This document shows positions 6,726 to 63,882 of a DNA stretch of 64,000 nucleotides, one piece after another (the stretch's first letter is position 1; every line of letters begins with the position of its first letter). Made by a program: the position numbers and the translations under genes. The DNA is from Salinivirgaceae bacterium (GTDB lineage Bacteria; Bacteroidota; Bacteroidia; Bacteroidales; SZUA-534). The stretch lies in assembly GCA_016342715.1 (NCBI GenBank), contig JAEINW010000003.1:604-64603 (forward strand). The letters run 5' to 3'. The notes beneath the pieces are model-generated. The model had not been told where the DNA came from, searched no databases, and worked only from the letters and a program-made list of their open reading frames with translations.

Positions 6726-8012
6726 ATTATGAACAAACAAGATAAAAAATACGCAAATTATTTAAGTATTTTACACGAAGAACTTGTGCCTGCTATGGGG
6801 TGTACTGAACCAATTGCTATTGCTTATGCTGCGGCAATGGCGAGGAAAGTTTTAGGTGAATTGCCTGAACGCGTCGAAATAGAAGCTAGCGATAATATTA
6901 TTAAAAATGTAAAAAGTGTAGTTGTTCCAAATACCGGAAATTTAAAGGGAATTAAAGCTGCAGCTGTTGCAGGAATTGTAGCCGGCGATGCCGATAAAAT
7001 TCTTGAAGTTATTTCAAAGGTAGATGATGCAGGTAAAAAGGCAATTGCCGAATTTATAGAAACAAAAGAAGTTAATATATATCCATCGAAAAGCGATTTA
7101 ATATTTGATATAGTTGTAAATGTATTTAGTGGAGAATTGAGTGCATCGGTTCAAATTTCAAATTACCATACCAATATTGTAAGTATTACAAAAAATGGTG
7201 AAATTGTTTTAAGCAATATTACTTGTGATGAAGAAGTAAATATTTTGCAAAAAACAGATCGCTCAATAATGACGGTCAAAGATATTATTGATTTTGCAGA
7301 TTCTGTTGAAATAGACGAAGTGAAAGCTGTTTTGCAACGTCAAATTGATTATAATATGGCCATAGCTGAGGAAGGAATTAAAGACGATTGGGGAGCAAAT
7401 ATAGGATCGGTTTTATTAAAAACTTATGGTAATGACGTGAAAATTCGCGCAAAAGCAATGGCTGCAGCTGGTTCTGATGCCAGAATGAGTGGTTGCGAAC
7501 TACCGGTTGTTATAGTATCAGGTAGTGGTAATCAGGGGCTTACTGCATCGGTACCTGTTATTGAATTTGCAAAGGAACTTAAAGTTGATCAAGAGGCTTT
7601 ATATAGAGCTTTAATTGTATCGAATTTGGTTACTATTCATCAAAAAACAGGCATAGGACGATTGTCGGCATACTGTGGTGCTATATCGGCAGGAGTAGGA
7701 GCAGGAGCAGGAATAGCTTGGTTGCACGGAGGTAAGTTTGAAGAAATTGCTCATACTATTGTGAATGCTCTTGCTATTGTTTCGGGTATTATTTGCGATG
7801 GTGCAAAACCATCATGTGCAGGTAAAATTGCATCGGCTGTTGATGCCGGGATATTAGGTTTCTATATGTATGAAAATGGGCAGCAGTTTTATGGTGGCGA
7901 TGGTATTATTCAGAAAGGTGTTGAAAATACTATAAAAAATGTTGGAAGATTAGGTAGTATTGGTATGCGTGAAACTGATAAAGAAATTATCAAAATAATG
8001 CTTGATAGATAA
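6726..8012 (+). CDS. UPF0597 / L-cysteine desulfidase-like (serine dehydratase alpha-like) protein
   Basis: MGCTEPIAIAYAAA motif, 428 aa from the internal ATG. The track ORF starts at a TTG at 6687. Confidence 0.8.
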   Translation: MMNKQDKKYANYLSILHEELVPAMGCTEPIAIAYAAAMARKVLGELPERVEIEASDNIIKNVKSVVVPNTGNLKGIKAAAVAGIVAGDADKILEVISKVDDAGKKAIAEFIETKEVNIYPSKSDLIFDIVVNVFSGELSASVQISNYHTNIVSITKNGEIVLSNITCDEEVNILQKTDRSIMTVKDIIDFADSVEIDEVKAVLQRQIDYNMAIAEEGIKDDWGANIGSVLLKTYGNDVKIRAKAMAAAGSDARMSGCELPVVIVSGSGNQGLTASVPVIEFAKELKVDQEALYRALIVSNLVTIHQKTGIGRLSAYCGAISAGVGAGAGIAWLHGGKFEEIAHTIVNALAIVSGIICDGAKPSCAGKIASAVDAGILGFYMYENGQQFYGGDGIIQKGVENTIKNVGRLGSIGMRETDKEIIKIMLDR

Positions 8013-21386: not shown

Positions 21387-21589
21387 TGCGAAATGATTGT
21401 TGTGTATGAAATAAGACACATTTAACACATTTTACCCTATATTAAAAATTAAATATAACTCATAATGTTATGTAAAAAAAATACTGTTAATTTTGGGCTC
21501 AAATTAATTTTGCATATGAAATAGCCATAAGCAATTAATTAAAATACATAAGTTACCGAAATACAAAGTATTAATCAAAGTTTATACAC

Positions 21590-38500: not shown

Positions 38501-40803
38501 CCCAAAGTGGCAATTATAAATTGGAAGCTACATTAAATAACTGTTCGGTTACTACCAGTCCGGTAGCCGTAACGGTTAATCCAGTGCCGACTACGCCTGT
38601 AATTGATGCCCCGGCATCAACCAATTTTTGCGAAGGAAGCAGCGTTACCCTACAAACAAATTATATTGATGGACTTACATACCAATGGCTTAATAATAAT
38701 GCCAGCATTGGTGAAAACAGTAACCAATTATTCGCCACAATTGGAGGAAATTACTCTGTAGAAGTTATCAATAATTATTTATGTAAGGCAGCCTCAAACA
38801 CTATTAGCCTAACCCGCACTTCTGCTCCAACGGCACCTTCACTAAACTATGGCGATTCAACTATTTGCAGTGGAATTACACTTAATTATTCAACCGTTAA
38901 TAACCCAGCGTTGACTTATCAATGGTACAGTAATAACGACCCTATTCCGGGCGCAACCAACAACCTATTTCCTATTGCCCAAAGTGGTAATTATAAATTG
39001 GAAGCTACGTTAAATAATTGTTCGGTTACTACCAGTCCGGTAGTAGTTACCGTTAATCTATCGCCCGTGCAACCTGAAATTATAATTTCGGGGGCTGACA
39101 TAGTTTGCAGTGGAGAATCATTGGTGTTAAGTACCGAATATTTTAACGATGAATCTTACCAATGGTATAGGGGGTCAACTGCACTGAGCGGCCAAACTAG
39201 TGATTCGTTGTTTGTTAGCCAACTTGGTGAATATGAATATAAAGTGCTGTCAAGATTAGGAAATTGTGTCCTCACATCAACCCCAGTAACGGCAAAAGTT
39301 AATGAATTACCATCAGTTATCAATTTAACTCTTTCGGGCGATTCTATTTTTTGTTCTGGTAGTAGTCTTACTCTTACAGCAAATGGTAATCCAGCCAATT
39401 ACTATTATCAGTGGTTCCGGGGTTATGGTATCTCTATAGATGGAGCTACAAGCAATGAATTAATTGTAAATGAAAGCTATCAATATAAAGTCAGGGTGCA
39501 GAATCCGCAGACCTACTGTGAGCGTGAATCGCGTTCTATTCAAGTAACAGTAAAAAACTCACCCAATACACCAGAAATTACTGTTGATAATAATAAAACC
39601 GATTTTTGTCAGGGAGAAAGTACCCTACTTCGAACATCTGCAACTAATGTAAATTGGATTTGGGGAAAAGTTGGTGACAGTAATTCATTGTCGGATAATA
39701 ATAATCTTACGGTAACTAATTCTGGCGATTATTTTGTGAAAGTTATCAATAGTGAAAATTGTGAGGCCACCTCTTTAACACAAACGATAACTGTTTTTGA
39801 TTCGCCTGTAAAAAACTATCTCTATTACGAAGGGGAAACCCAGTTTTGCGAGGGAGGGAGTGTATTGATAAAAACAAATTACAATACCAATATTAATACC
39901 GATTATATATTGCAATGGAAAACTCTGGAAGGTAGTATCGATGGGGCTAATCTGAAAAATTATTTGGCAAGCCAATCGGGTTATTATTGGCTTGAGGTTA
40001 TTAATGCGAATCAATGTTCAGTAGTTACCGATACCTTACAAGTTCTGGTTGATGCCATGCCACCCACACCTTTTATAATGGAACAAAATAATACCACTGA
40101 ATTTTGTCCAGGTACACAACTTGAGCTACTTGTTGATAATGCTTCATCCAATTATGAATATCAATGGCAGCGGTTTAGCAATAATATACCGAATGCTACT
40201 CAATCGGTTTATGGAGGAAAATTAACAGGTGGCGATTATTCGGTTGAGCTTACTTATGGAACTTGTATGCTTACTTCAAATATTTTAACATTAACCGAAA
40301 AGTTGGCACCAGAAAAACCTTTAATTTCAGGTCAAGGACCGGTTGAGTGGATGCTATTTTGTAGTGAAACAAATGCTACGGCTTACCGCTGGTATTTTGA
40401 TAATGTATTGATAGTTGGAGCTAAATACTCCATGTATTTTGCCAATAGAAATTTGGGTAACTATTATGTTGAAATTAATATGGGCGAAGAGTGCTGGACT
40501 AGGAGCGATATTCTAAATATTCCATCGGGCGATTTAATAGATGGTATCCCAACTCTGAATTCTAAGGCTATAAGTATTTATCCAAATCCATCACAAGGGG
40601 AGTTTACGGTGCATTTGGGAACCCAATTGCCAGGAAATCTGAAGGTGCAACTTACCGATGTATTAGGAAAAAACATGGCTAATTATGAATATTCTTTTGT
40701 TCGTGAATTCTCCGTCTCCTTGCATGAATTTCCTCAGGGGATATATTTCTGTAAAATGGAATACAAAGGAAATATAGTTATGAAAAAAATTATTAAAAAT
40801 TAA
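32557..40803 (+). CDS. 2748-aa T9SS-secreted adhesin-like protein (LamG, FN3, two FG-GAP/VCBS blocks, PKD, ~11 Cys-containing Ig-like repeats, T9SS CTD)
   Basis: Signal peptide; LamG-like FDGKIDDICVWNRALTQTEVQ; many WGD(F/Y)(N/D)NDG.LD repeats; PKD WKWNFGDNSG and WFWNFGDGQT; C-terminal ISIYPNPSQGEFTV..GIYFCKM. Confidence 0.85.
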   Translation: MNYLYTKTCLASILMGMLCIFQFSSKAQNNCLDFDGVDDYVSTTAINPASFTYEAWINPDNTTNDQAIISSLNEIGLKGSELHISSNAVSLTMRNNTEWHNIITSAGVINTGNWFHLATTYDGTTAIIYINGEQAVSETEATYIAGSTPLTIGRRSSGLLNFDGKIDDICVWNRALTQTEVQARMNTSIAGIESGLLLNYNLNQGIADGNNTGITSATDATTNGNDGTLSGFALTGTTSNWTKGAPKPEPTNHATIFTASLNGSNIELAWSDEASAEGYLILASTTNSFTDPIDGVESSVDKDLSDGSVVIKVPQGTETYSGFTNAATGNTYYFRIYPYNNSGLDINYKTNGTVPESSVFLPKTEPSNHATAFTANVNSGNIELSWIDEPTADAYLILASTTNTFTVPTDGNIPVADNDLADGSGTIFALQGDEIYSTWLNTSFGTTYYFQIYAYTITGSYPNYNTNPTIPTVDIIIPYQLFSYHSTSISDYNQGAIAWGDFNNDGALDIIATGKTGGNVTSLYKNNEDKTFSWQTSYSGVQGSIVWCDYDNDNDLDFVMAGSGVTSIFRNESGSFVKQSDISFMGVTSGSVDWGDFDNDGFMDLIVTGLDNISVEITKIYHNNGNNTFQELNIDNIIGIQHGVVSCGDYNNDKFCDFIIVGGYFDNYDMGKLYKSNGDGTFTEQSDIEIPPLNMASADWGDYDNDGDLDLLLSGIHKTSNNEVNTVYQNNGNNTFTEQTGITLDDPTDYRHSIAWADYDNDGYLDIFQLVGDYTQIYHNDKDGSFTKKSLTEYSIAPGNMAFGDFDKDGDLDLLVTDKSSNDYATTLYNNNCATINTAPTVPNGLTITQTKDNAILSWNKSTDNTTPSEGLTYNIRIGTTAGGCDLLSPQALTDGTLLIPANGNNSTDTSYGFSCDPETYYWAVQTIDKSYAASSFSSEQTFIRTSFPATNLSAQINSSSSLMLRWETGSLSRRAVFCKQAYSGSATPVDGDYYLADPYYGKGDEIGATGWYCVYNGKADSTMVYGLDADYGYIFHVLEYTSQSETTDYVLDVADGNPAVFGVTEFLSQPSSISGITTNLSGGTSSWVDYNNNGYLDLFLTGSSSSSYLYANNGDGSFTENSIFNSNYHITEIAWGDYNNDGFQDAIASCDSNVYTSVYKIDSTYDSSANSWIYDSTYTGYTTQTNYFSVIYKNNNGEEFIKQSITNIPPAYDGSIKWGDYNNDGLLDLILTGRSTSIVNTSSISYTKLFKNNGENSFSEVSEEFPGGGNGDVEWGDIDNDGDLDIVLAGNNVSKIYINNNGTFDEQTTLQLTQIDSQATIRLADFNNDGLIDIILFGYTDSRHISEIYRNTGDGQFNKESTCAITTITSGSVNIGDYNNDGLIDVLAIGYATWYGWLSGEAPFAKLYLNISNSNDNLIEFEEVKQNGLIGSSNGASNYGDYDNDGDLDVIITGQNDLIAYTKFYTNNTIMNAGSFAPNKTPTVPQNLTKEPLRGGVLLSWNAITSDETPSSTMSYNIRVGTSKDSMNLYAPNFVDSVNFKNRTVTQMGNAGLNTFYKIYNLPDLADDKYYYWQVQAVDGGFLGGEWSRVDSFQIQSAQAYFSYNIACKSDTTFFKDESVAYDGITAWKWNFGDNSGLNYEQNPSHVFQSAGEHSVQLVVTNSQGKTDTITQIVYVKPTPSVSFTATDGCGAFSTELDNLTSTTGLINSWFWNFGDGQTSIYGDPLSHVYGATGNFTITLSASDTNGCSSTISHDIVVTTKPNTSLTLEYGTLINGSPSFCLGDSVMYSVAANANYSYQWQRDNSNIANTTNQLKVKTVTGNYKVIISNNLATTCADTSEVKTITVKQVPAPPVLEAESAVSFCQGDSVKITLGSYSGVTFNWFKNGGSLDGSQNYFMAKESGNYTSRVTLSNNCYSSSEIPVVVNVKPNPPTPSLNYGDSTICSGITLNYSTVNNPALTYQWYSNNDPIPGATNNLFPIAQSGNYKLEATLNNCSVTTSPVAVTVNPVPTTPVIDAPASTNFCEGSSVTLQTNYIDGLTYQWLNNNASIGENSNQLFATIGGNYSVEVINNYLCKAASNTISLTRTSAPTAPSLNYGDSTICSGITLNYSTVNNPALTYQWYSNNDPIPGATNNLFPIAQSGNYKLEATLNNCSVTTSPVVVTVNLSPVQPEIIISGADIVCSGESLVLSTEYFNDESYQWYRGSTALSGQTSDSLFVSQLGEYEYKVLSRLGNCVLTSTPVTAKVNELPSVINLTLSGDSIFCSGSSLTLTANGNPANYYYQWFRGYGISIDGATSNELIVNESYQYKVRVQNPQTYCERESRSIQVTVKNSPNTPEITVDNNKTDFCQGESTLLRTSATNVNWIWGKVGDSNSLSDNNNLTVTNSGDYFVKVINSENCEATSLTQTITVFDSPVKNYLYYEGETQFCEGGSVLIKTNYNTNINTDYILQWKTLEGSIDGANLKNYLASQSGYYWLEVINANQCSVVTDTLQVLVDAMPPTPFIMEQNNTTEFCPGTQLELLVDNASSNYEYQWQRFSNNIPNATQSVYGGKLTGGDYSVELTYGTCMLTSNILTLTEKLAPEKPLISGQGPVEWMLFCSETNATAYRWYFDNVLIVGAKYSMYFANRNLGNYYVEINMGEECWTRSDILNIPSGDLIDGIPTLNSKAISIYPNPSQGEFTVHLGTQLPGNLKVQLTDVLGKNMANYEYSFVREFSVSLHEFPQGIYFCKMEYKGNIVMKKIIKN

Positions 40804-51066: not shown

Positions 51067-53460
51067 ATGAAAAAATATATAGTATTACTTTTTTTAATAG
51101 TACCAGGTTTTTTGATGGCTCAAAAGGGAACCTTACAAGGCTTGCTTGTTAATGCTATTAATAATGAACCTGTTCCCTTTGCAAATGTGCTTATATATGG
51201 AACAGCCATTGGATCGGTTAGCGATTTAGATGGTAATTTTAAATTTTTTGGATTGGAACCCGGTTTTGTGCGAGTGCAAGTTTCATCCATTGGATTTGAA
51301 ACTAAAGTATCTGATGAAATTCAGGTGACCAATGCAAAAACAAGATTTATAGAAATTAAAGTAGTGGAAAGCACAACGGATCTGGAGGAAGTAACAGTTA
51401 AGACATCGCAATTTAAGCGTAAGGAAGAAAGTCCTGTGTCGATGCGCAGTATTGGTATTGCTGAAATTGAAAAAAATCCGGGTGGTAATCGTGATATTAG
51501 CAAAGTAATTCAGTCATTACCTGGAGTGGCTGGTTCTGTCTCTTTTCGAAACGATATAATTGTTCGGGGTGGTGGACCCAGCGAAAATAGGTTTTATTTA
51601 GACGCTGTGGAAATTCCAAATTTAAATCACTTTGCAACTCAAGGTGCATCAGGCGGACCTGTTGGTATGATTAATGTTGATTTTATCAGGAATGTTGATT
51701 TTTATTCGGGGGCTTTTCCTGCAAACCGTGGAAATGCATTAAGTTCCGTGCTCGATTTTCAACAAATTGATGGAAATAAAGAGAAAATGAAATATAGAGC
51801 AACTATTGGAGCTTCCGATTTAGCTTTAACTTTAGATGGTCCTATCGGTGATAAAACCAGTTTGGTGTTTTCTGCTCGTCGTTCGTATTTGCAGTTTTTA
51901 TTTCAAGTAATTGGATTGCCCTTTTTGCCTACATACAATGATGTTCAGTTTAAAATAAAATCGCACATCGACGAAAAAAATGAAATCACATTTATTGGTT
52001 TGGGAGCTTTAGACCAGTTTGAATTGAATTTAAAAGCCAATGAAACAGAAGAGCAACGTTACATTTTAGGATACTTGCCAGTTAATGAGCAGTGGAATTA
52101 TACCGTGGGGGGTATTTACAAGCATTACCGAGAAAAAGGGTATCATACCTTGGTTTTAAGCCGCAATCATTTAAATAATTCTGCCTATAAATATTTGGAT
52201 AATGATGAAACTACGCCTAAAATATTTGATTATAAATCAGATGAGGTTGAGACAAAACTAAGATATGAAAATACCATGCGAACCGAAAAGGGTTTTAAAA
52301 TAAACTTTGGAGCTGGTATGGAATATGCGCAATATTTTAACGATACCTATCAACTTCGCTTTGTTAATAATGCTCCTGTAGCAATTGACTATGAAACAAA
52401 TTTAGATTTGGTTAAATGGAGTGGTTTTGGTCAAGTGAGTAAAGGTATTTTTAATCAACGCTTAATTGTTTCATTGGGTTTACGAATGGATGCAAATAAT
52501 TATTCGAGCGATATGAATAACTTGTTTGAGCAAATTTCACCAAGATTATCCTTAAGCTATCCTATAGGGGATAAATGGGCGGCGAATTTTAACACAGGTA
52601 AGTTTTATCAATTGCCTCCATATACAACGCTTGGTTATGGAGGACAAAATGGAGTGTTGGTAAATAAAGACAATGGTATAAAATATATCCAATCAGATCA
52701 TTTAGTAGGAGGTTTAGAATATTTACCCAACGAGAAATCTAAAATTACCTTAGAAGGGTTTTATAAAAAGTATAATGATTATCCATTTTCAGTAAACGAT
52801 GGTGTGGCAATATCCAGTAAAGGTAGTGATTTTGGCACTTTTGGAGATGAAGAGGTTACTCCAACAGGTGTTGGTCGATCTTACGGAATTGAGCTTTATA
52901 TGCGCCACACAAGTTTATTTAAATTTAACACCATATTATCTTATACTTGGGTTACAAGTGAATTTGAAGATGCTACAGGTTCTTACATTCCAACAGCATG
53001 GGATAATAAACATTTATTTAACTTAACAGCTACTCGCAGTTTTAAAAATAATTGGGATTTTGGTTTTAAATATCGCTTTGCCGCTGGTGCTCCATATACT
53101 CCCGATGATTTAGTAAAATCAAGTTATATTTCGGCTTGGGATGCTCAGCAAAGAGCGTATCTTGATTATTCGCAATTTAATAGTGTGCGCTTAAATAATT
53201 TTACTCAGTTAGATGTGCGTGTAGATAAAAGTTTTTATTTCGACAACTGGTCGTTTATGGTGTATTTAGATATTCAGAATATTTTAGGTTCAAAAATAGA
53301 CACCCCTGATATTTTAACTGTTGATACAGATGTAAATGGAGTTAAGGTTATTGACAATCCTGGTGACCCTATTGCAGATCAACGATATAAAATGCGTTTT
53401 ATTGAAACCAATGGACAAGGCACTGTTTTGCCAACCATTGGAATTATGTTTGAATTTTAA
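51067..53460 (+). CDS. TonB-dependent receptor with CarboxypepD_reg-like domain
   Basis: Signal peptide; GNFKFFGLEPGFVRVQVSSIGFE; plug IIVRGGGPSENRFYLDAVEI; barrel ending MFEF. ATG at 51067 (the track starts at a TTG at 51058). Confidence 0.9.
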   Translation: MKKYIVLLFLIVPGFLMAQKGTLQGLLVNAINNEPVPFANVLIYGTAIGSVSDLDGNFKFFGLEPGFVRVQVSSIGFETKVSDEIQVTNAKTRFIEIKVVESTTDLEEVTVKTSQFKRKEESPVSMRSIGIAEIEKNPGGNRDISKVIQSLPGVAGSVSFRNDIIVRGGGPSENRFYLDAVEIPNLNHFATQGASGGPVGMINVDFIRNVDFYSGAFPANRGNALSSVLDFQQIDGNKEKMKYRATIGASDLALTLDGPIGDKTSLVFSARRSYLQFLFQVIGLPFLPTYNDVQFKIKSHIDEKNEITFIGLGALDQFELNLKANETEEQRYILGYLPVNEQWNYTVGGIYKHYREKGYHTLVLSRNHLNNSAYKYLDNDETTPKIFDYKSDEVETKLRYENTMRTEKGFKINFGAGMEYAQYFNDTYQLRFVNNAPVAIDYETNLDLVKWSGFGQVSKGIFNQRLIVSLGLRMDANNYSSDMNNLFEQISPRLSLSYPIGDKWAANFNTGKFYQLPPYTTLGYGGQNGVLVNKDNGIKYIQSDHLVGGLEYLPNEKSKITLEGFYKKYNDYPFSVNDGVAISSKGSDFGTFGDEEVTPTGVGRSYGIELYMRHTSLFKFNTILSYTWVTSEFEDATGSYIPTAWDNKHLFNLTATRSFKNNWDFGFKYRFAAGAPYTPDDLVKSSYISAWDAQQRAYLDYSQFNSVRLNNFTQLDVRVDKSFYFDNWSFMVYLDIQNILGSKIDTPDILTVDTDVNGVKVIDNPGDPIADQRYKMRFIETNGQGTVLPTIGIMFEF

Positions 53461-53475
53461 TTAGTAAAAGTTACT

Positions 53476-53508
53476 AGCCCTCGTAGGGTTTAAAACCTTA
53501 CGAGGGCT
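53476..53508. repeat. REP hairpin R3 (inverted orientation, one G-U pair)
   Basis: AGCCCTCGTAGGG-TTTAAAA-CCTTACGAGGGCT, 16 nt after the receptor stop codon. It may double as a terminator. Confidence 0.85.
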
Positions 53509-53524
53509 CTAAATTTTAAAAATT

Positions 53525-54286
53525 ATGAAGTATTTTAGAATAAATATTCTATTGGCTGCAGTAATTGTAATAGGAGTTATATTACAAAGTAGTTTTGAGC
53601 CTGATAAGAAAAAGAAAGCACCCAAAGAAAGCATTCAAGCAAATGTTAATGCAAATGGCACTATTTTGGAATTTATGCTTGTTGCAGGGAAAGAACACAA
53701 TCATCCAACATTTGCATTTTGGATTGAGAATTTAGATGGAACATTTGTGCAGGAGCTATTTGTAACTAAATCATTATCGACTGGAATTTACGGTCATGGA
53801 CAAAAAGTTGAAGGGGTTTGGGATACTGAGCCAGGAGAAGTCAGAAGGCCTGCCACTTTACCTTATTTTCTGCATAAACGTGGTGTAAAAGCTGAAGATG
53901 GCACCTATTTACCAACTCCTAAAAAACCAATTGTTGATGCATATACTGGAGCTACTCCTGCAGCTGACTTTGATTTGGAGGCAAAATCGAATGAAAAGTT
54001 GAGCGGGAAATATCGAATACTTTTTGAGCTAAACCAGTCTTGGGACTGGAATGAGTTTTGGAACAATACAAAACATATTGATGAACTTAATTATAAAACA
54101 TCCTGTCAGCCAGCTCTAGTATATTCTGTGGTAATTGACTTTGACAATCCTATGGATTATTATGCTTTAAACCCAATGGGTCATAGCCATTATTCTGGAA
54201 AAACAGGAGAGTTATTTACAGATATATCTACTCTTACAACTGCCAAGCATATTTTTGATAAAATTGAAGTTAGGGTAAAAAAATAA
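53525..54286 (+). CDS. Secreted hypothetical protein, possibly DUF2271-like, partner of the TonB receptor
   Basis: Signal/anchor helix; PTFAFWIENLDGTFVQELFV segment. The family assignment is tentative. Confidence 0.45.
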   Translation: MKYFRINILLAAVIVIGVILQSSFEPDKKKKAPKESIQANVNANGTILEFMLVAGKEHNHPTFAFWIENLDGTFVQELFVTKSLSTGIYGHGQKVEGVWDTEPGEVRRPATLPYFLHKRGVKAEDGTYLPTPKKPIVDAYTGATPAADFDLEAKSNEKLSGKYRILFELNQSWDWNEFWNNTKHIDELNYKTSCQPALVYSVVIDFDNPMDYYALNPMGHSHYSGKTGELFTDISTLTTAKHIFDKIEVRVKK

Positions 54287-54334
54287 TAGTAATATTTATT
54301 GCCATCAATTTGGATCACCTTCATCCGTGATAGT

Positions 54335-54945
54335 TATTTTTGTTTTCTAATGCCGACATATCCTTTGGATGCTGTCATATTAGTGTTGCCTTATCACAAA
54401 AGCGTCGCAGAACTTTTGTCAATAAAAAACGAGACTAACAAAGCAAAAGGTTTTCCAATACTAGAGTTTTAGTAGTTCCAATGCCGATAGATCTTGCAGA
54501 TGCTATCGGATAGGTGATAACTTTATCACGAAAGCATACTGAATATTTTTCATCGATAGCATATTGAGTTAACCATAGCGTTTATTAATAATGGAGTTTT
54601 TGTTTTCTAATGCTGACAGATCCTTTGGATGCTGTCAGATTGGTGTTGCCTTATCACGAAAGCATACGAAGTATCTTTCGTCGATAAAAAAAGATGTTAA
54701 CAACAGCGTAGGTTTGCCCATGAAGTAAGGTGCTGCGCATGGTTTTTGCATGGTGTTGTCTTATCACGAAAGCGTCGCAGAACTTTTGTTGATAAAAAAC
54801 GAGACTAACAATGGGAAAGGTTTTCCAATACTAAAGTTTTTGTTTTCTAATGCTGACAGATCCTTTGGATGCTGTCAGATTGGTGTTGCCTTATCACGAA
54901 AGCATACGAAGTATCTTTCGTCGATAAGCATACTAAGCTAATAAT
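54335..54945 (+). repeat. Array of five head-to-tail ~120-nt modules, each with two conserved hairpins (candidate structured ncRNA array)
   Basis: 54595-54687 is identical to 54835-54927 (240-bp period), and 54391-54475 is about 90 percent identical to 54761-54840. Compensatory stem substitutions occur between modules. The strand is uncertain. Confidence 0.7.
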
Positions 54946-55198
54946 GTAGATGCTAAGCTAATTGGTTTTTCATCAATGCGGCAATATGCATTACATATTT
55001 ACTAGTTGATAGAAAAAAACGTTATGCGAATTATAGGCTGTAAATTTATTTTGAAGTGTAACCCAGCCCGAAACTTCAGTTTTACTCTGTATTATGGTTA
55101 AAAATTATAGCAATTCATTACTATTTCCTGTCATATTATTGCAATCACCAATTCCTAAATAGTATATTTGTAATCTAAAAAATCTAGAACTGCAATTG

Positions 55199-55543
55199 AT
55201 GAAGATACAGGAATTATTGGCATTAGTCGATGGTAAGGTTGTTACCAGTAGTGATTACAATTCATACGATATTGAATATGGTTTGGCATCCGATTTAATG
55301 AGTGATGTGCTCACGTTTGATGTGGAAAACTCAATTTTAATTACAGGTTTAGCAAACTTGCAAACTATTCGCACCTTGGAGATGTCAGATATTGAATGTG
55401 TAATTATTGCACGAAATAAGAAGGTAACTCCTGAAATGATTGAATTAGCTAATGAAAAACAAATTACAATTATTGATTCGCCTTACACTATTTTTAGAAT
55501 TTCAGGTATACTTTATGAAAACGGCATAAAACCTTTATATTAA
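55199..55543 (+). CDS. DRTGG domain protein
   Basis: ASDLMSDVL..ILITGLANLQTIRTLEMSDIECVIIARNK. First gene of the hydrogenase-sensor cluster. Confidence 0.75.
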   Translation: MKIQELLALVDGKVVTSSDYNSYDIEYGLASDLMSDVLTFDVENSILITGLANLQTIRTLEMSDIECVIIARNKKVTPEMIELANEKQITIIDSPYTIFRISGILYENGIKPLY

Positions 55544-55968
55544 TGATGCAGTTTGAATATAAAGTTGAGGGGGGTGATTTTACCAATGCTGGGAATGCAT
55601 CAAGCGAGGTAAAAAAAATATTAAAAAAGCTCAATGTAAGTCCAAAAATTACCCGTAGGGTGGTAGTAGCTTTATATGAAGCAGAAGTAAATATTGTAGC
55701 TCATGCCTACCGAGGAGATATTATTGTTGAAATTGATACTGAAAAAATTAGAATTCAATTAAATGATGAAGGTCCGGGTATTGATAGTATTGAACAGGCT
55801 ATGACTGAAGGATTTTCAACCGCATCAGAACAAGTTCGTGAAATGGGATTTGGAGCTGGAATGGGTTTGCCAAATATTAATAGAAATGCTGATGAATTGA
55901 ATATTACTTCTGAAATAGGCAAGGGAACCAATTTGGAAATAATAACTTATTTAAATAAAGAGAATTAA
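55543..55968 (+). CDS. RsbW-like HATPase (anti-sigma-type Ser/Thr kinase) protein
   Basis: EAEVNIVAHAY..DEGPGIDSIEQA..GFGAGMGLPNI..GKGTNLEI. The start overlaps the upstream stop. Confidence 0.8.
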   Translation: MMQFEYKVEGGDFTNAGNASSEVKKILKKLNVSPKITRRVVVALYEAEVNIVAHAYRGDIIVEIDTEKIRIQLNDEGPGIDSIEQAMTEGFSTASEQVREMGFGAGMGLPNINRNADELNITSEIGKGTNLEIITYLNKEN

Positions 55969-55969
55969 A

Positions 55970-57334
55970 ATGGATCAACCGTTTTTTTTTCATGCACTAA
56001 AAGTTGATGATAAAGCCTGTATTGGTTGTTCTCATTGTATGAATGCATGTCCTACTGAAGCAATTCGAATTTGGAATGGGAAAGCGGTAATTGATGATAA
56101 TAAATGTGTAGATTGTGGGGAATGTTTTCGCGTTTGTCAGGTAAATGCTATTTATGTTGAGGATAATGACTTTGAACAAATCTATCGTTTTAAATACAGA
56201 GTAGCGTTATTCCCAGCAGTTTTTGTAGGTCAGTTTCCCGAAGAAATAAAGGTCAGTCAGATTTATTCAGAGTTGCATAAAATTGGTTTTACTCACTTGT
56301 TTGAGGTAGAGCGGGCGGTTGAAATATTGAATGAATCTATTGTGGATTATCAAGAAAATAAAGAAAATGAATTACCCATTATTTCATCTTTTTGCCCAGC
56401 AATTATCCGATTGATACAAGTTAAATTCCCATCGTTGGTTGATAATATTCTCCGACTGGGAACGCCTAGCGATATAGCAGCCCATTTTTATAAACAAAAA
56501 CTAATCGATGAGGGTATTCCAGTTAATGAAATAGGAATTTTTTACATTACCCCATGTGCAGCTAAAATTGCCGCAATTAAAAATCCGGTTGGTGAAGAAA
56601 AATCAATTGTCGATGGGGCTATTAATTTAAATCGTTTATTCAATAAGGTTTATCGAAACATTAAACAAGCAACCGAAGATGTTTTAATATCGCAAGCTAC
56701 GGAATTATTTAGTTATGAGGTTTTATGGACCCTTACTAAAGGAGAATCGTCAAGAGTAAAGGGCAGAGCTTTGGCTATTGATGGAATAAATAGCGTCATG
56801 GAATTTCTTGAAAAAGTAGAAAATAGGGAGGTTCATAATATTGATTATTTAGAATGCCGCGCTTGCAAAGAAGGCTGTGCAGGTGGAATTTTAAATCCTC
56901 AAAACAGGTTTTTAACCGTCGAACGCTTAAATAAAAGAGTTTCATTAAACTTAAAAAAGAATAAGCAATTTTCATCTTCAGGTATTGTGAATTACAAGGA
57001 ATATTTGAATGAGAAAATGATTTTAGATAAGTTGGTTCCACGATCGATGATGATGTTGGATTCAGACATGGCTTTGGCCATGAAGAAAATGGTAAAAGCA
57101 CAAAAAATTGAAGCCGAACTTCCTGGAATTGACTGTGGAGCTTGTGGAGCACCATCATGTAAAGCGTTGAGCGAAGATATTGTTAAGGGAGATGCAACAC
57201 TTTCGCATTGTGTTTTTGTGCAAAATGTGCTCATGCAAAATGGCGAAATTAATATGGAAACGGCTTTTGCTATTATTGATAAAATTTGGGGTGAGCACAA
57301 AGTTGTAAAAGGATCGATAAAATCGGGTAAATAA
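55970..57334 (+). CDS. [FeFe]-hydrogenase-like sensory protein (2x[4Fe-4S] ferredoxin, divergent H-domain, C-terminal 4-Cys domain)
   Basis: CIGCSHCMNACP and CVDCGECFRVC. H-cluster motif positions read SSFCPAI, ITPCAAK and ECRACKEGCAGG. C-terminal CGACGAPSCKALSEDIVKGDATLSHC. Confidence 0.8.
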   Translation: MDQPFFFHALKVDDKACIGCSHCMNACPTEAIRIWNGKAVIDDNKCVDCGECFRVCQVNAIYVEDNDFEQIYRFKYRVALFPAVFVGQFPEEIKVSQIYSELHKIGFTHLFEVERAVEILNESIVDYQENKENELPIISSFCPAIIRLIQVKFPSLVDNILRLGTPSDIAAHFYKQKLIDEGIPVNEIGIFYITPCAAKIAAIKNPVGEEKSIVDGAINLNRLFNKVYRNIKQATEDVLISQATELFSYEVLWTLTKGESSRVKGRALAIDGINSVMEFLEKVENREVHNIDYLECRACKEGCAGGILNPQNRFLTVERLNKRVSLNLKKNKQFSSSGIVNYKEYLNEKMILDKLVPRSMMMLDSDMALAMKKMVKAQKIEAELPGIDCGACGAPSCKALSEDIVKGDATLSHCVFVQNVLMQNGEINMETAFAIIDKIWGEHKVVKGSIKSGK

Positions 57335-57346
57335 AAAAGTACTGAA

Positions 57347-57682
57347 ATGAAAATAAAGGATATAATTGAAAAGCTTGAGTTAAAAGTTATTGGCGGTGAA
57401 GCTGGACTTGAGAATGAAATAAGTGGAGCATATACCAGCGACTTATTAAGCGATGTTATGGGCAATATTGATGATGGAAATGTTTGGATTACTCTTCAAA
57501 CTCATAAAAATGTAATGGCCATTGCTTCCTTACGCGAATCTAGTGCGGTTATCTTAGTAAAAGGACTACAACCTGATGTTGATATGCTTGAAAAAGCAAA
57601 CGAAGAAGGCATTCCAGTTCTTGGAACCGAGTTGGAAACATTTGAAATATCAGGAAAATTGTATCAATTACTAAATCCATAA
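57347..57682 (+). CDS. DRTGG domain protein (second copy)
   Basis: TSDLLSDVMGN..VWITLQTHKNVMAIASLRESSAVILVKG. Confidence 0.75.
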   Translation: MKIKDIIEKLELKVIGGEAGLENEISGAYTSDLLSDVMGNIDDGNVWITLQTHKNVMAIASLRESSAVILVKGLQPDVDMLEKANEEGIPVLGTELETFEISGKLYQLLNP

Positions 57683-57687
57683 CCAAG

Positions 57688-57720
57688 AGCCCTACGAGGG
57701 TTCAGAACTCTCGTAGGGCT
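57688..57720. repeat. REP hairpin R4 (AGCCCTACGAGGG-TTCAGAA-CTCTCGTAGGGCT)
   Basis: One mismatch in a 13-bp stem. Sits in the 66-nt gap between the DRTGG and PHP genes. Confidence 0.85.
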
Positions 57721-57748
57721 TAAATACTTGAAAGATTTAAATCAAACT

Positions 57749-58486
57749 ATGAATACATACCAAGCCGACCTACACATTCATACCATATTATCTCCTTGCG
57801 GCGATTTGCAAATGAGTCCTAAAAATATTATTGCAGAAGCTGCTAAAAAAGGTTTGGATATTATAGGGATAACAGATCATAATTCCACACGCCAATCTCG
57901 ACTTATAAAAAAACTAGGTGAAAAAGAAGGAATTTTTGTTTTATGTGGCGCTGAGCTAACATCAAAAGAAGAAGCTCATTGTTTGGTTTTTATGCCCGAT
58001 GATGAATCATTGGCTTTATTACAAGCTTTTTTAGATACTAATTTGCCAAATATTCAGAATGACGTAAATCAATTTGGGTATCAGGTTTGTGTGGATGAAA
58101 AGGAAAATATTGTATTTGAAGAGCCACGCTTATTAATATCGGCAATAAATAAATCAATAAAAGAGATTCAGGAGCTTACGTATTCTTTAGGTGGAATTTT
58201 TATTCCTGCCCATGTTAATCGCCCTAGGTATAGTATTATAAGTCAATTGGGCTTTATCCCCGACGATTTATTGGTAGATGCATTAGAACTATCGAGACAT
58301 ATTACTCGTGCAGAGTTTATTAAACAAAATCGTTATTTAGAAAAATACAATTTTATCAGTAATTCTGATGCACATTTTGTGAATGATGTTGGAGCCGTAA
58401 ATACTCTACTGCAAATGGAGATGCGATCATTTGAAGAGCTGAAAATGGCTTTAAATGGGTTGGATGGTCGTAAAATAATTTATTAG
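57749..58486 (+). CDS. PHP-domain phosphoesterase
   Basis: ADLHIHTILSPCGD..IIGITDHNS..IPAHVNRP..SNSDAH metal-ligand pattern. ATG at 57749 (the track starts at a TTG at 57728). Confidence 0.8.
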   Translation: MNTYQADLHIHTILSPCGDLQMSPKNIIAEAAKKGLDIIGITDHNSTRQSRLIKKLGEKEGIFVLCGAELTSKEEAHCLVFMPDDESLALLQAFLDTNLPNIQNDVNQFGYQVCVDEKENIVFEEPRLLISAINKSIKEIQELTYSLGGIFIPAHVNRPRYSIISQLGFIPDDLLVDALELSRHITRAEFIKQNRYLEKYNFISNSDAHFVNDVGAVNTLLQMEMRSFEELKMALNGLDGRKIIY

Positions 58487-58590
58487 TTTGTGACACTCTT
58501 TTGTTTTGAAAACAGGAAATAAATAAGCATGAAATTCCAGTAATAAATAAGTAACACAAAGTAAAAATATATTTAAAACAGTTTGTATAA

Positions 58591-59130
58591 ATGAAAGATA
58601 TAGCGGAACATATTTTAGATATTTCTCAAAACAGTATTTCTGCTGATTCCACATTTGTTGAAATTAAAATCCATCAATCGATCGCAGATAATAGCTATAC
58701 CCTTATCATTATAGATAATGGTAAAGGAATGGATAAGAATACAGTTCAACGTGTAATTGACCCATTTTATACCTCCAGAACAACGCGCAAAGTTGGGCTC
58801 GGATTACCTTTGTTAAAACAAAATGCTGAAATAACGGGCGGTAATTTTTCTATTCAATCAAAAGTTGGCGAAGGCACTAAGGTGCAAGCCGAATTTATAT
58901 TAGATAATATTGATAGAATTCCAGAAGGAGATGTCTCTGGCACGATCGTTTTGTTAGTTGTGATAAATCCAACATTAGATTTTAAATTTGAATACGCTAC
59001 CGATCGTGGAAATTATATTTTTAATACCCGAGAAATTAAAGACATATTAGGAAATGTCCCCATAACAGATAATTCAGTGCGGAAGTATTTAATTGAAATG
59101 ATTCAAGAAAATATCAAAGAGATTTGCTGA
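58591..59130 (+). CDS. HATPase_c-type ATP-binding protein
   Basis: IIDNGKGMD..FYTSRTTRKVGLGLPLL..GEGTKV. Confidence 0.75.
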   Translation: MKDIAEHILDISQNSISADSTFVEIKIHQSIADNSYTLIIIDNGKGMDKNTVQRVIDPFYTSRTTRKVGLGLPLLKQNAEITGGNFSIQSKVGEGTKVQAEFILDNIDRIPEGDVSGTIVLLVVINPTLDFKFEYATDRGNYIFNTREIKDILGNVPITDNSVRKYLIEMIQENIKEIC

Positions 59131-60302: not shown

Positions 60303-62096
60303 ATGAATAAATATAAAATGCATCTCCTTGTTTGCGGTGGAACAGGCTGTAAAGCTTCAGCAAGCGATGCTTTAGAAGATAAGTTAACCAAAGAGTTAGA
60401 AGAAAAATCTCTTCAAGATGAAGTTCAGGTTGTTAAAACCGGATGTTTTGGCTTTTGTGAAAAAGGACCTATTGTAAAGGTGCTTCCTGACAATACTTTT
60501 TATACTCAGGTGAAACCTGAAGATGCAAAAACAATTATTGAAGAGCATGTTATAAAAGGGCGTAAGGTTGAAAGATTACTTTACTTAGATCCGGAAACTA
60601 AAATGCATGTTACTGACTCTAAACACATGGGATTTTATAAAAAACAAATACGTGTTGCTTTACGTAACTGTGGTTTTATTAATCCTGAAAGTATTGAAGA
60701 AGCTATTGCACGTGATGGTTATGCTGCATTGGCAAAAGTGCTGACTGAAATGACCCCTGACCAAGCGATTCAAGAGATATTAGACTCAGGACTTCGCGGT
60801 CGTGGAGGAGGTGGTTTTCCAACAGGTTTAAAATGGAAACTTACGGCTAAGGAAAAAGCCGATCAAAAATATGTTGTTTGTAATGCAGATGAAGGTGACC
60901 CCGGTGCATTTATGGACCGTTCAATTCTCGAAGGCGATCCGCATTCAGTTATCGAAGCAATGGCTATCAATGGCTATTGTACTGGAGCTACAAAAGGTTT
61001 AATTTATATTCGTGCGGAATATCCTTTGGCTATTACGCGTTTAAAAATCGCCATTGATCAAGCACGTGAATTTGGTTTGTTAGGTAACGATATTTTGGGT
61101 TTAGGTTTCGATTTCGATCTTGAAATGCGTTATGGTGCAGGTGCTTTTGTATGTGGAGAAGAAACTGCTCTTATTCATTCTATGGAAGGTGAACGCGGTG
61201 AACCAACATTTAAACCACCATTCCCATCGGTTGAAGGTTATTTGAAAAAACCAACCAACGTAAACAACGTTGAAACATATGCCAACATTCCAGTTATTTT
61301 CTTAAAAGGAGCCAACTGGTTTAATAAAATTGGTACCGAAAAATCAAAAGGAACTAAAGTTTTTGCCTTAGCCGGTAAAATTAATAATGTGGGACTTATC
61401 GAAGTTCCAATGGGAACCACTTTACGTGAAGTAATTTACGAAATTGGTGGTGGAATAAAAGACGGAAAGAAATTTAAAGCAGTTCAAACTGGCGGACCTT
61501 CGGGAGGTTGTTTGACTGAAAAGCATTTAGATACTCCAATTGATTTTGATAACTTGATTGCTGTTGGTTCTATGATGGGATCGGGTGGTATGATTGTTAT
61601 GGATGAAGATGATTGTATGGTTTCTATGGCTAAATTTTATTTGGAATTTACGGTTGAAGAATCATGCGGAAAATGCGCTCCATGTAGAATTGGAAACAAG
61701 CGCTTACATGAACAGTTAGAATTAATTACAAAAGGTATAGGTTCAAAAGCCGATCTTGAAAAACTAAGAGACCTTTGTAATGTAATAAAAGATACTTCAC
61801 TATGTGGTTTGGGGCAAACTTCACCAAACCCTGTGCTTTCAACTATTGATAACTTCTATGATGAATATTTAGCGCACGTTGAAGATCAAAAATGTCCGGC
61901 AGGAGTTTGTAAGGATTTAATGCAATATGTGATTTCACATGACGAATGTGTGGGTTGTACAGCTTGTGCCAGAGTTTGCCCAGTTGGAGCAATTGCAGGT
62001 GAACGCAAAGGACCACATACTATTGATTCAGCAATCTGTATCAAATGTGGAGCTTGTATCGAGAAGTGTAAATTTAATGCAATTAGCATACAATAA
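60303..62096 (+). CDS. hydB: NuoF-like flavoprotein subunit of NAD(P)-linked/bifurcating [FeFe] hydrogenase (HydB type)
   Basis: GLRGRGGGGFPTGLKW (FMN), ESCGKCAPCRIG, N-terminal 2Fe-2S Trx-like domain, two C-terminal 4Fe-4S motifs. Confidence 0.9.
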   Translation: MNKYKMHLLVCGGTGCKASASDALEDKLTKELEEKSLQDEVQVVKTGCFGFCEKGPIVKVLPDNTFYTQVKPEDAKTIIEEHVIKGRKVERLLYLDPETKMHVTDSKHMGFYKKQIRVALRNCGFINPESIEEAIARDGYAALAKVLTEMTPDQAIQEILDSGLRGRGGGGFPTGLKWKLTAKEKADQKYVVCNADEGDPGAFMDRSILEGDPHSVIEAMAINGYCTGATKGLIYIRAEYPLAITRLKIAIDQAREFGLLGNDILGLGFDFDLEMRYGAGAFVCGEETALIHSMEGERGEPTFKPPFPSVEGYLKKPTNVNNVETYANIPVIFLKGANWFNKIGTEKSKGTKVFALAGKINNVGLIEVPMGTTLREVIYEIGGGIKDGKKFKAVQTGGPSGGCLTEKHLDTPIDFDNLIAVGSMMGSGGMIVMDEDDCMVSMAKFYLEFTVEESCGKCAPCRIGNKRLHEQLELITKGIGSKADLEKLRDLCNVIKDTSLCGLGQTSPNPVLSTIDNFYDEYLAHVEDQKCPAGVCKDLMQYVISHDECVGCTACARVCPVGAIAGERKGPHTIDSAICIKCGACIEKCKFNAISIQ

Positions 62097-62112
62097 AGGA
62101 GGAGATTGAATA

Positions 62113-63882
62113 ATGGAATTTGTTAATTTAACTATAGATAATAAGTCCGTTAAGGTAGAAAAAGGAACAAGTATCTTAAAAGCTGCACGTTCAGTTGGTA
62201 TCGAAATCCCTACCTTATGTTATATGAGCCTTGGCGACATGGATATTGAAAATAAGCCAGGTGGATGTAGAATTTGTGTTGTTGAAGTTGAGGGTAGAAG
62301 AAACCTCGCACCTTCGTGTGCCACTAATGTTGATGAAAACATGGTGGTTAAAACAAACACTATGCGTGTAATGAATGCACGTAGAACAGTTCTTGAATTA
62401 ATTTTATCCGATCACCCTGCTGATTGTTTAATTTGTCCAAAATCTGGCAATTGCGAATTGCAAGATATGGCACATCAATTAGGGGTTCGTGAAATTCATT
62501 TTAAAGGAGCACAATCAACCTATCAGCCTGATTATTCACCATCAATTATTCGTGATCTTGATAAATGTATCATGTGTCGTAGATGCGAAACCATGTGTAA
62601 TGACGTACAAACGGTTGGCGCACTTCATGCAATAAATCGTGGTTTTGAATCGGTTGTTGCACCTGCATTTGAAATGGATTTAGAAAAATCAACCTGTACC
62701 TATTGTGGTCAGTGTGTGGCAGTTTGTCCTACAGGAGCATTAACAGAGGTTGATCATACCAACGAAATAGTGAGAGCCTTAGCTGATCAAAGTAAAACCG
62801 TAGTTGTTCAAACTGCACCCGCAGTTAGAGCTGCTTTAGGTGAAGAATTTGGACAGGAACCGGGAACCTTGGTTACTGGAAAAATGGCCGCTGCTTTACG
62901 TCGCTTAGGATTCAATTATGTATTTGATACCGATTTTAGTGCCGACCTTACCATTATGGAAGAAGGTACAGAATTATTAGGTCGTTTAGGTAGGCATTTA
63001 GCTGGTGATAAAACAGTTAAACTTCCAATTTTAACATCATGTTGTCCGGCTTGGGTAAATTTTTTCGAAAAACAATTTCCCGATATGTTAGACATTCCAT
63101 CAACAGCACGTTCTCCTCAGCAAATGTTTGGTGCTATTGCAAAAACATATTTTGCTGAAAAAATTGAAATCAAACGTGAAGATATGATTGTTGTTTCTGT
63201 GATGCCTTGTTTGGCTAAGAAATACGAATGTCAACGCGATGAGTTTAAAACTGATGATAATCCAGATGTAGATTTCTCAATTTCAACTCGCGAATTGGCT
63301 CAACTTATCAAACGTGCAAATATTGACTTCAATTCTTTACCTGATGAAGATTTCGATCATCCTTTGGGTGAGTCAACAGGTGCTGCTGTAATTTTTGGAA
63401 CAACCGGTGGTGTTATTGAAGCTGCTTGTAGAACTGCCTACGAAGTTTATACAAAGAAAAAATTAGAAAAAGTTGACTTTGAAGAATTAAGAGGATTTGA
63501 AGGCATTCGTTCAGCTACTATCGATTTTGATGGCTTACCAATAAGTATTGGAATAGCTCATGGATTAGGAAATGCAAGAAAACTTCTTGAAGATATTCGC
63601 TCAGGAAAATCAAATTATCATGCTATTGAAGTAATGGCATGTCCAGGTGGATGTATTGGTGGTGGTGGTCAACCATTACACCATGGTGATTCTTCAATCT
63701 TGAAAAAACGTCAAATGGCAATTTATCAGGAAGATAAAAATAAACCTATTCGTAAATCGCATGAGAACCCATACATTACTAAATTGTATGAAGAATTCTT
63801 AGGTGAGCCTTTAAGCGAGAAAGCACATCATTTATTGCATACGCATTATTTCAATAAGAAAAAGAATATTGAATTAGAGTAG
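62113..63882 (+). CDS. hydA: Catalytic [FeFe] hydrogenase (HydA/HndD type)
   Basis: Canonical H-cluster motifs TSCCPAW, MPCLAKKYE and EVMACPGGCIGGGGQP, plus N-terminal 2Fe-2S and 4Fe-4S modules. Confidence 0.95.
   Translation: MEFVNLTIDNKSVKVEKGTSILKAARSVGIEIPTLCYMSLGDMDIENKPGGCRICVVEVEGRRNLAPSCATNVDENMVVKTNTMRVMNARRTVLELILSDHPADCLICPKSGNCELQDMAHQLGVREIHFKGAQSTYQPDYSPSIIRDLDKCIMCRRCETMCNDVQTVGALHAINRGFESVVAPAFEMDLEKSTCTYCGQCVAVCPTGALTEVDHTNEIVRALADQSKTVVVQTAPAVRAALGEEFGQEPGTLVTGKMAAALRRLGFNYVFDTDFSADLTIMEEGTELLGRLGRHLAGDKTVKLPILTSCCPAWVNFFEKQFPDMLDIPSTARSPQQMFGAIAKTYFAEKIEIKREDMIVVSVMPCLAKKYECQRDEFKTDDNPDVDFSISTRELAQLIKRANIDFNSLPDEDFDHPLGESTGAAVIFGTTGGVIEAACRTAYEVYTKKKLEKVDFEELRGFEGIRSATIDFDGLPISIGIAHGLGNARKLLEDIRSGKSNYHAIEVMACPGGCIGGGGQPLHHGDSSILKKRQMAIYQEDKNKPIRKSHENPYITKLYEEFLGEPLSEKAHHLLHTHYFNKKKNIELE

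Follow-up and report, generated by a model that had tools for sequence, protein, structure and literature searches.

A tandem array of two-hairpin modules upstream of a HydS-type sensor operon in a Salinivirgaceae bacterium: a possible minisatellite of native regulatory DNA

Introduction

What kind of element is represented by a tandem array of hairpin-bearing modules that lies directly upstream of a HydS-type sensor operon, and from where did it originate? This question is raised by a locus in a 64,000-nucleotide stretch of DNA from a Salinivirgaceae bacterium (assembly GCA_016342715.1, contig JAEINW010000003.1, positions 604 to 64,603; hereafter the window), in which the 909-nt gap (54287-55195) between a gene for a hypothetical protein of 253 amino acids (aa) and the operon houses such an array. 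A first-pass annotation, made from the sequence alone, described five head-to-tail modules, each with two hairpins (H1 and H2) joined by a linker and with stems that appeared to covary. It proposed that structure rather than a peptide is conserved, and considered a regulatory or sponge RNA as well as a DNA-level array. The reading that we favour, with belief and doubt about evenly balanced, is that the array represents a lineage-specific minisatellite of the genome's own intergenic regulatory DNA, which expanded after the loss of a gene.

Anatomy of the array

The gap does contain five head-to-tail modules (54325-54965). Tandem Repeats Finder (TRF) reported a tandem array with a period of 128, while nhmmer and a covariance model (filters off) each detected exactly five modules on the + strand of the 64-kb window, with scores of 74-114 bits. 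A separate repeat search placed copies at 54320, 54580 and 54820, corresponding to spacings of 260 and 240. All modules are on the same strand in direct orientation, their pairwise identity ranges from 55 to 84%, and the GC content of the array is similar to that of the surrounding DNA. The maximal exact repeat is 93 nt in length, 54595-54687 being identical to 54835-54927, and the 240-nt period noted previously is thereby exact. The second tail variant, reported to be common to the first and fourth modules, was also recovered (54383-54473 versus 54753-54843, 90% identity).

The third module (M3; 54597-54727, 114 bits) may be viewed as the 'master' copy, consisting of H1 (54613-54638), the linker ATTGGTGTTGCC (54639-54650) and H2 (54651-54687), followed by a tail. 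In M1 (54337-54470, 90.3 bits in the covariance model), H1 (54353-54378) is weakened and lacks its three outer pairs, while H2 (54391-54425) is of a variant, B, with the stem ACAAAAG/CTTTTGT and a 10-nt loop, and is followed by tail variant B. M2 (54471-54596, 90.4 bits) possesses a fully paired H1 (54484-54509) with three compensated pairs relative to M3, and a degenerate H2 (54523-54559) that contains two C·A and two G·U oppositions. The 5' part of M4 (54728-54836, 74.8 bits) is truncated or replaced, such that this module has no H1; it retains a variant B H2 with one G·U pair (54761-54795) and a tail that is 90% identical to that of M1. Finally, M5 (54837-54965, 109.7 bits) carries H1 at 54853-54878 and H2 at 54891-54927. 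Its first 91 nt (to 54927) fall within the 93-nt exact repeat that it has in common with M3, and its tail is similar to the M2 tail. Variants of H2 and of the tail are spread as a mosaic over the modules, which points to gene conversion on top of duplication.

A possible sixth module, strongly degenerate, may follow on the + strand at 54966-55092 (10.2 bits, E 4 in the covariance model). Within this candidate, TTTTTCATCAAT (54966-54977) resembles the 3' arm of the M2 H2, and GTTGATAGAAAAAAACGTTA (55005-55024) resembles the end of H2 with the A-run and the tail, although the matches are weak (nhmmer E 0.42 in 301 nt; Smith-Waterman p 0.06 versus M3). The copies degenerate toward the operon. With its head-to-tail copies, near-constant period and graded divergence, the array displays the features by which a minisatellite or tandem array is recognised.

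Synteny and putatively native pieces of the module

The upstream gene (53525-54286, + strand), whose 253-aa product is identical to JEZ09_00810 of a Salinivirgaceae metagenome-assembled genome (MAG), was used as a synteny anchor for a comparison with relatives, the nearest of which exhibit at most 71% identity in the neighbouring protein. In the closest relative (loci L009 and L010), the order of TonB receptor, 252-aa gene, intervening slot and DRTGG operon is retained, and the slot (6760-7741 in L009) is occupied by a gene for a 186-aa signal-peptide protein that is outer-membrane-like. In L011/L012 and in L015, the slot (6766-10081 in L011; 2640-5928 in L015) instead encodes a 1030-aa Reg_prop/HisKA sensor kinase. 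The modules are absent from the five syntenic loci of the relatives, the covariance model included among the searches, and neither TBLASTN nor BLASTN detected remnants of the 186-aa protein or the 1030-aa kinase gene in the array. In this Bacteroidales lineage, the interval that separates the DRTGG/HydS-type operon from the 253-aa gene is a hotspot of turnover.

Two parts of the module appear to be native. L011 and L015 also carry the 11-mer TTTGTTTTCTA, with which M1, M3 and M5 begin, at the equivalent place: it follows their orthologue of the 253-aa gene and shortly precedes the kinase gene. At the other end of the gap, a relic module (55128-55193, + strand) lies 256 nt past the corresponding point in M5, in phase with the 260/240 spacing of the array. 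Its alignment with M1 and M3 covers the 3' arm of H1, the linker, H2 and the A-run (Smith-Waterman against shuffles: p<0.002 for M1, 0.004 for M3). The relic matches the 14-mer CTGTCATATTAtTG at 13 of its 14 positions; nowhere else outside the array does this 14-mer match with one mismatch or fewer. The relic overlaps the promoter of the operon itself, and this region is orthologous to the one upstream of the L009 operon (p 0.0025). Modules and L009 are linked solely via this upstream region of the window's own operon, and direct comparison of M1-M5 with the operon upstream regions of L009 and L011 was not significant (p 0.17-0.99). The relic has no hairpins; indeed, the native regions form none (z +1.6 for the relic, and +0.25). 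Since TTTGTTTTCTA is native in relatives and an in-phase relic is present at the operon promoter, the unit may represent a fusion of both, and an origin from local promoter-proximal DNA is moderately supported by these alignments. The first-pass annotation had foreseen, as evidence against its own proposal, that the modules might prove to be 5' fragments of a protein gene or ends of a known insertion sequence (IS) or miniature inverted-repeat transposable element (MITE). The former comes close to what was found, in that the modules resemble the promoter-proximal DNA of the locus, while no IS or MITE was encountered.

Promoter-like motifs frame the array. At its 5' edge, a Bacteroidota-type promoter-like site (54309-54342, + strand) consists of a -33 TTTG (54309-54312), a 22-nt spacer and the -7 element TATTTTTG (54335-54342), a perfect Bacteroidota -7 box positioned directly before the TTTGTTTTCTA of M1. 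The operon promoter identified in the motif scan, also on the + strand, comprises a -33 TTG (55139-55141), a 21-nt spacer and the -7 element TATATTTG (55163-55170), 36 nt ahead of the start codon. The sequence TAnnTTTG occurs on the + strand at 54335, at 54709 and at the operon promoter (55163) only, and the scan detected no such promoter motif on the - strand of 54200-55250. In L009, the -7 box TATCTTTG of the DRTGG operon is immediately succeeded by an inverted repeat, CTGATAA-A-TTATCAG, and then by TGATAA (7702-7724). This operator-like repeat loosely resembles a Fur-type 7-1-7 box, and has no equivalent in the window's own promoter.

Pairing statistics and hairpin stability

RNAalifold predicts H1 (a palindrome of 11 bp) and H2 (16 bp) independently, and to this extent the proposal of two hairpins per module stands; it requires qualification for M4 (no H1), M1 (H1 weakened) and M2 (H2 degenerate). 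With the named structure, 92.9% of the cells pair, versus 33-47% with slid 3' partners, and changes on both sides occur at five pairs, a number equalled by 2 of 500 shuffles; all of this covariation is drawn from four distinct paralogues within one array. In H1, six of the 22 stem positions differ between M2 and M3, and these amount to three compensated pairs with no pair broken, as the first reading of the sequence had claimed (P ~1e-4 to 6e-3 in a neutral simulation with independent substitution). The series reported for the H2 basal stem was likewise found, the variable pair being A-U in M1, G·U in M4 and G-C in M3 and M5. The H2 5' arm and the linker are nearly invariant among the modules, and only 4 of 32 H2 stem positions changed between M2 and M3, versus 12 of 33 non-stem positions.

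The thermodynamic signal is more restricted. The covariation term of RNAalifold amounts to just -0.24 kcal/mol, and better-than-shuffle folding is confined to the duplicated M3 (z -3.05) and M5 (z -3.8), with M1, M2 and M4 being no more stable than shuffles (z between 0.06 and -0.7). No strand asymmetry was seen among half-compensated pairs, which comprise three G·U on the + strand versus four C·A (equivalent to G·U on the - strand). As single-stranded DNA (ssDNA), the module core of M3 folds equally on both strands (z -5.1 on +, -5.5 on -). The view that structure is kept rather than a peptide is therefore upheld in so far as the modules are non-coding and pairing, that of H1 especially, is kept via double changes, while most of the modules are thermodynamically unremarkable.

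The linker region of M2 (54512-54529) reads GTGATAA-CT-TTATCAC; linker and neighbouring H2 5' arm here make up an inverted repeat that is perfect over 7 bp. The underlying change, from GGTGTTGCC-TTATCAC to GGTGATAAC-TTTATCAC, consists of clustered substitutions and one insertion. Template switching during replication can create or 'compensate' stems without selection, and its signature is that of clustered changes which give perfect inverted repeats (PMC8794818). The M2 linker matches this signature and is thus a candidate template-switch mutation, indicating a route to the H1 pattern that may involve no function. As RNA, the M2 inverted repeat would compete with H2.

The H2 apical loops also differ among the modules. 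In M3 and M5, the apical part reads ATAC-GAA-GTAT, with a C-GAA-G triloop (54664-54674 and 54904-54914), while H2 of M1 and M4 has an unstructured 10-nt loop instead. Triloops of the C-GAA-G type are of a kind known for very stable DNA mini-hairpins, for example d(GCGAAGC).

Searches for known elements and for copies elsewhere

The covariance model, whose use had been proposed in the first-pass annotation, recognises just the five modules in the 64-kb window and none in the syntenic loci of relatives. Neither it nor nhmmer yielded further copies in the remaining 63 kb. One extra 17-bit match of the covariance model (53434-53513) was rejected as a module, and corresponds to an unrelated strong palindrome between two genes. 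Rfam 15 produced no match in the whole window at gathering thresholds and none within the array at E values up to 10 (53800-55600 searched), and ARAGORN reported no tRNA or tmRNA genes. An H2 pattern covering all five modules was scanned against 596 Gb of GTDB representative genomes and JGI metagenomes, with three matches in the former and five in the latter. Their likeness stops at the pattern, with unrelated flanks, and these matches (Acinetobacter, Dependentiae, Subsaximicrobium) were rejected as chance. No match to an H1/linker pattern was obtained among IMG/VR viral contigs, BLASTN against phage and plasmid records returned no match to the array, and a search for GGCAACACCAAT, the complement of the conserved linker and hence a possible target, gave nothing above chance. 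Conservation elsewhere was thus absent from every collection searched, and the suggestion of a conserved structured-RNA or sponge family, for which there is neither a homologue in these collections nor a strand asymmetry, was not sustained.

The first-pass annotation had recognised no named RNA family, IS end, attC site or CRISPR repeat in the array, with which the Rfam, motif and repeat searches concur. The attC core sites GTTRRRY and RYYYAAC are absent from both strands of 54287-55195, and the layout is not that of an integron attC, as each unit has two separate hairpins rather than one long imperfect one between core sites, and there is no integrase among the annotated open reading frames (ORFs). 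Transposase, integrase and REP-associated tyrosine transposase (RAYT) genes are all lacking among the 27 annotated ORFs, all neighbours included. A MITE is not indicated, with no inverted-repeat pairs of at least 12 nt in 54200-55200 and no copies elsewhere in the window. Similarly, repetitive extragenic palindromes (REPs) and bacterial interspersed mosaic elements (BIMEs) would be expected to show an associated RAYT (Y1 transposase) gene among the annotated ORFs or an alternating palindrome orientation, and neither is seen. In contrast to a CRISPR, in which unique spacers alternate with near-identical repeats of just 23-55 nt, the entire unit of ~125 nt repeats and there are no unique spacers. 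Terminator-like sites are absent from both strands of the gap, and a sigma-70 promoter scan revealed no enrichment; the combination of promoter and intrinsic terminator in each unit that characterises tandem small RNA (sRNA) arrays is not present. A type I toxin-antitoxin (TA) or small-peptide system is not apparent either, since there is no conserved small ORF and none is hydrophobic. A type III TA system, in which short near-identical repeats precede a terminator and a ToxN/AbiQ-type toxin gene, is equally at odds with units of ~125 nt at 55-84% identity and with downstream genes encoding DRTGG, HATPase_c_2 and Fe_hyd_lg_C proteins.

Proposed origin of the array

From these data we infer the following history. 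An ancestral gene, situated in the slot downstream of the 253-aa gene and ahead of the DRTGG/HydS-type operon, would have been lost in this lineage. The remaining upstream sequence of the lost gene (TTTGTTTTCTA...) may then have been joined to the promoter-proximal region of the operon (CTGTCAtATTAtTG...ATCAC...GTATnTTTG...A-run). Slippage or unequal recombination would subsequently have multiplied the fused segment head to tail, with gene conversion shuffling the copies, an amplification history suggested by the mosaic of variants, the 93-nt exact repeat and the degeneration toward the operon. The H1 and H2 palindromes are envisaged to have been created or sharpened within the array lineage, and their pairing may have been maintained by arm-to-arm templated mutation (template switching) together with conversion, or by modest selection on the hairpin. 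The array could be transcribed rightward as a non-coding, hairpin-rich RNA, and such transcription is probable because the neighbouring genes and the sole promoter-like motifs are on the + strand. As the operon has a promoter of its own, the array would not be required for operon expression, and it is most likely without a dedicated trans-acting function.

Several observations weigh against this history. The three compensated pairs in H1 are non-adjacent and a bulged G is retained, which is hard to achieve by a single template switch, and the pattern would appear to fit selection on the hairpin at least as well. Furthermore, the low divergence of the H2 stem and the near-invariant H2 5' arm and linker suggest constraint. 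The alignment of the relic with the modules is gapped and spans 66 nt, ranking in the top 0.6-0.8% of real windows, and the best unrelated A/T-rich windows outscore the relic against the modules. Finally, the search for copies within this genome spans one contig of the MAG, and dispersed copies may be present elsewhere in the genome.

If the minisatellite reading is true, the array would be an ordinary, if tidy, bacterial minisatellite of little consequence. It would nevertheless illustrate that 'covariation' among a few paralogues within an array can mimic an RNA family, that palindromes can arise and stay paired in duplicated DNA, and that the scar of a gene loss can be re-filled by amplified flanking regulatory DNA. 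The array might also be usable as a strain marker, in the manner of a variable-number tandem repeat (VNTR), for this Salinivirgaceae lineage. If, on the other hand, the array were transcribed with an effect on the sensory-hydrogenase operon, it would provide a rare view of a structured regulatory RNA emerging de novo.

Alternative explanations

A functional structured RNA, transcribed from the promoter-like site at 54335, has a real if minor chance of being the correct explanation; it would act either as a long 5' leader of the HydS-type operon or as a sponge or protein-binding RNA, whose repeated H1-linker-H2 units each display the conserved GGUGUUGCC linker. The compensation in H1, improbable under neutrality, argues for such an RNA, as do the nearly invariant linker and H2 5' arm, the passage of the H2 series from G-C to A-U via a G·U on the + strand, the promoter-like motif at the array edge on that strand with none on the other, and the co-orientation of array and operon. 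It is difficult to reconcile, however, with the lack of homologues in the collections searched and of any Rfam match, with closest relatives that do not have the array, with M1, M2 and M4 folding like shuffles, and with the marginal covariation term. C·A mismatches are, moreover, as common as G·U pairs, there is no terminator or per-module promoter, and the operon's own conserved promoter makes a leader unnecessary. A more specific form, in which the orphaned promoter of the lost kinase gene gave rise to a newly evolved, lineage-specific leader or sponge of five hairpin modules that partly controls the HydS-type operon, is doubtful, with a slim chance of being right; if true, it would capture a regulatory RNA in the course of its birth from duplicated promoter DNA, its hairpins having been acquired via template switching. 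The modules could also act as DNA, as extra promoter or operator copies that serve as decoy or cooperative sites for RNA polymerase or a regulator, or as cruciform-prone DNA, thereby tuning the sensor/hydrogenase cluster, to which we assign a small chance. In keeping with this, the modules align with the -33/-7 region of the operon, each H2 3' arm contains a -7-like box with one mismatch (TATCTTTC, TATTTTTC or AACTTTTG), and H2 as DNA folds equally on both strands (z ~-5). The operator-like TGATAA-N-TTATCA after the -7 box in L009 is echoed by TTATCA...GATAA in the modules and by the GTGATAA-CT-TTATCAC of M2. Yet no module box matches TAnnTTTG and the spacers are 22-23 nt, the window's operon promoter is without the TGATAA motif, covariation in H1 speaks against its recognition by a sequence-specific protein, and neither a candidate regulator nor conservation is seen.

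Three further explanations are unlikely. A mobile or selfish element that relies on hairpins and is of the REP/BIME, PATE/MITE or IS200/IS605-end type, with ssDNA hairpins recognised by a Y1 transposase and amplified in tandem, is improbable. Each unit does contain two imperfect, bulged palindromes that are stable as ssDNA on both strands, the compensation fits recognition of structure over sequence, the C-GAA-G loop of H2 resembles the d(GCGAAGC) mini-hairpin, and the location is intergenic. Nonetheless, there is no second copy in 64 kb or in the public collections scanned, no transposase, RAYT or integrase is annotated, the units are all direct and have no terminal inverted repeats, and parts of the unit are native DNA common to relatives. 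Tandem small-peptide genes, such as precursors of ribosomally synthesised and post-translationally modified peptides (RiPPs) or type I toxins, or the decayed 5' remains of a protein gene, are very improbable. An ATG is situated directly before H1 in M1, M2, M3 and M5, and the N-terminal parts of the encoded peptides are alignable (MPTYPLDAV, MLTDPLDAV, MPIDLADAI); the frames and lengths disagree, however, with ORFs of 40, 10, 25 and 25 codons, respectively, and no start in M4. The 2-nt indel in the H2 loop breaks any reading frame common to the modules, as the first-pass annotation had argued. The M1 and M4 tails differ by nine nucleotides in seven codons, with seven of seven codon differences non-synonymous, and the same applies to almost every difference within the 10-18 opening codons of M1, M2 and M3. 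The homology check proposed for module peptides found no homologue of either the 40-aa or the 63-aa ORF among 5.8 billion clusters and 1.84 billion representatives. None of the peptides is hydrophobic (maximum Kyte-Doolittle value <=1.15), and they bear no similarity to the slot genes of relatives. The modules are non-coding. That the copy number is in part an assembly artefact, reflecting a mis-resolved loop in the metagenome assembly graph, is scarcely credible. The contig is from a single-sample MAG, and an exact stretch of 93 nt recurs in M3 and M5, but M1, M2 and M4 show just 55-79% identity among themselves and with M3/M5, such that at least four distinct modules are real, and the M3 and M5 tails differ, as would be expected of real neighbours.

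Comparison with known systems

The array is most readily compared with bacterial intergenic minisatellites and VNTRs such as the mycobacterial interspersed repetitive units (MIRUs), which likewise consist of head-to-tail, non-coding units of 50-130 nt between co-oriented genes, range from identical to strongly diverged copies, and expand by slippage or unequal recombination. In contrast to MIRUs, which are dispersed over many loci per genome and often contain small in-frame ORFs, the present array occupies a single locus as far as seen, and its unit carries two strong palindromes. With REP/BIME and BOX elements it has in common the intergenic hairpin modules, the capacity for tandem clusters, and a structure that is kept better than the sequence. 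Those elements are, however, dispersed in tens to hundreds of copies, and REPs occur in alternating orientation and are linked to RAYT transposases, whereas here the 64 kb contain no other copy, the units are direct, and a transposase is not found among the annotated ORFs.

Tandem sRNA arrays, such as NsiR1 in Nostoc and LhrC1-4 in Listeria, are composed of head-to-tail units of ~60-110 nt with conserved hairpins. Every such unit is equipped with a promoter and a Rho-independent terminator, and conservation of these families extends across species. Several hairpin units are similarly arranged head to tail in one intergenic region here, but with one promoter-like site for the entire array, no terminators and no conservation. 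The tandem RNA repeats of ToxI-like type III antitoxins resemble the array in that they immediately precede a protein-coding operon and share its orientation. They differ in that ToxI repeats are 34-45 nt long, near-identical, and followed by a terminator and a gene for a ToxN-family endoribonuclease, while the units here, at about 125 nt, have diverged from one another, and a gene for a DRTGG-domain protein comes next. Finally, the clustered changes in the M2 linker that result in a perfect inverted repeat are akin to template-switch hairpins, in which several stem sites change without stepwise selection (PMC8794818). Template switching is a mutational mechanism rather than a functional class, and the H1 bulge argues against one switch for all three pairs.

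Neighbouring genes and other features of the window

The downstream operon begins with a gene for a DRTGG protein (55199-55543, + strand, from the annotation of ORFs), followed by genes encoding HATPase_c_2, a HydS-like Fe-hydrogenase/FeS protein (Fe_hyd_lg_C), DRTGG and PHP proteins. The sensor operon as a whole (55199-59130) extends to a further HATPase_c gene. On its 3' side (60303-63882) lie genes for the NuoF-like and HydA-type subunits of an electron-bifurcating-type [FeFe]-hydrogenase, and the operon order is kept in the relatives examined.

Upstream of the 253-aa gene, the 64-nt spacer that separates it from the TonB-dependent receptor gene contains a near-perfect 15-bp palindrome (53476-53509) of the type AGCCCTCGTAAGGTTT / AAACCCTACGAGGGCT, with the actual sequence tagccctcgtagggtttaaaaccttacgagggct, which is probably a terminator or an mRNA-stabilising hairpin; its 17-bit match to the covariance model of the modules reflects no more than its being a hairpin. 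The window also contains two very large ORFs, one on the + strand (32557-40803, 2748 aa) and one on the - strand (16569-21428, 1619 aa).

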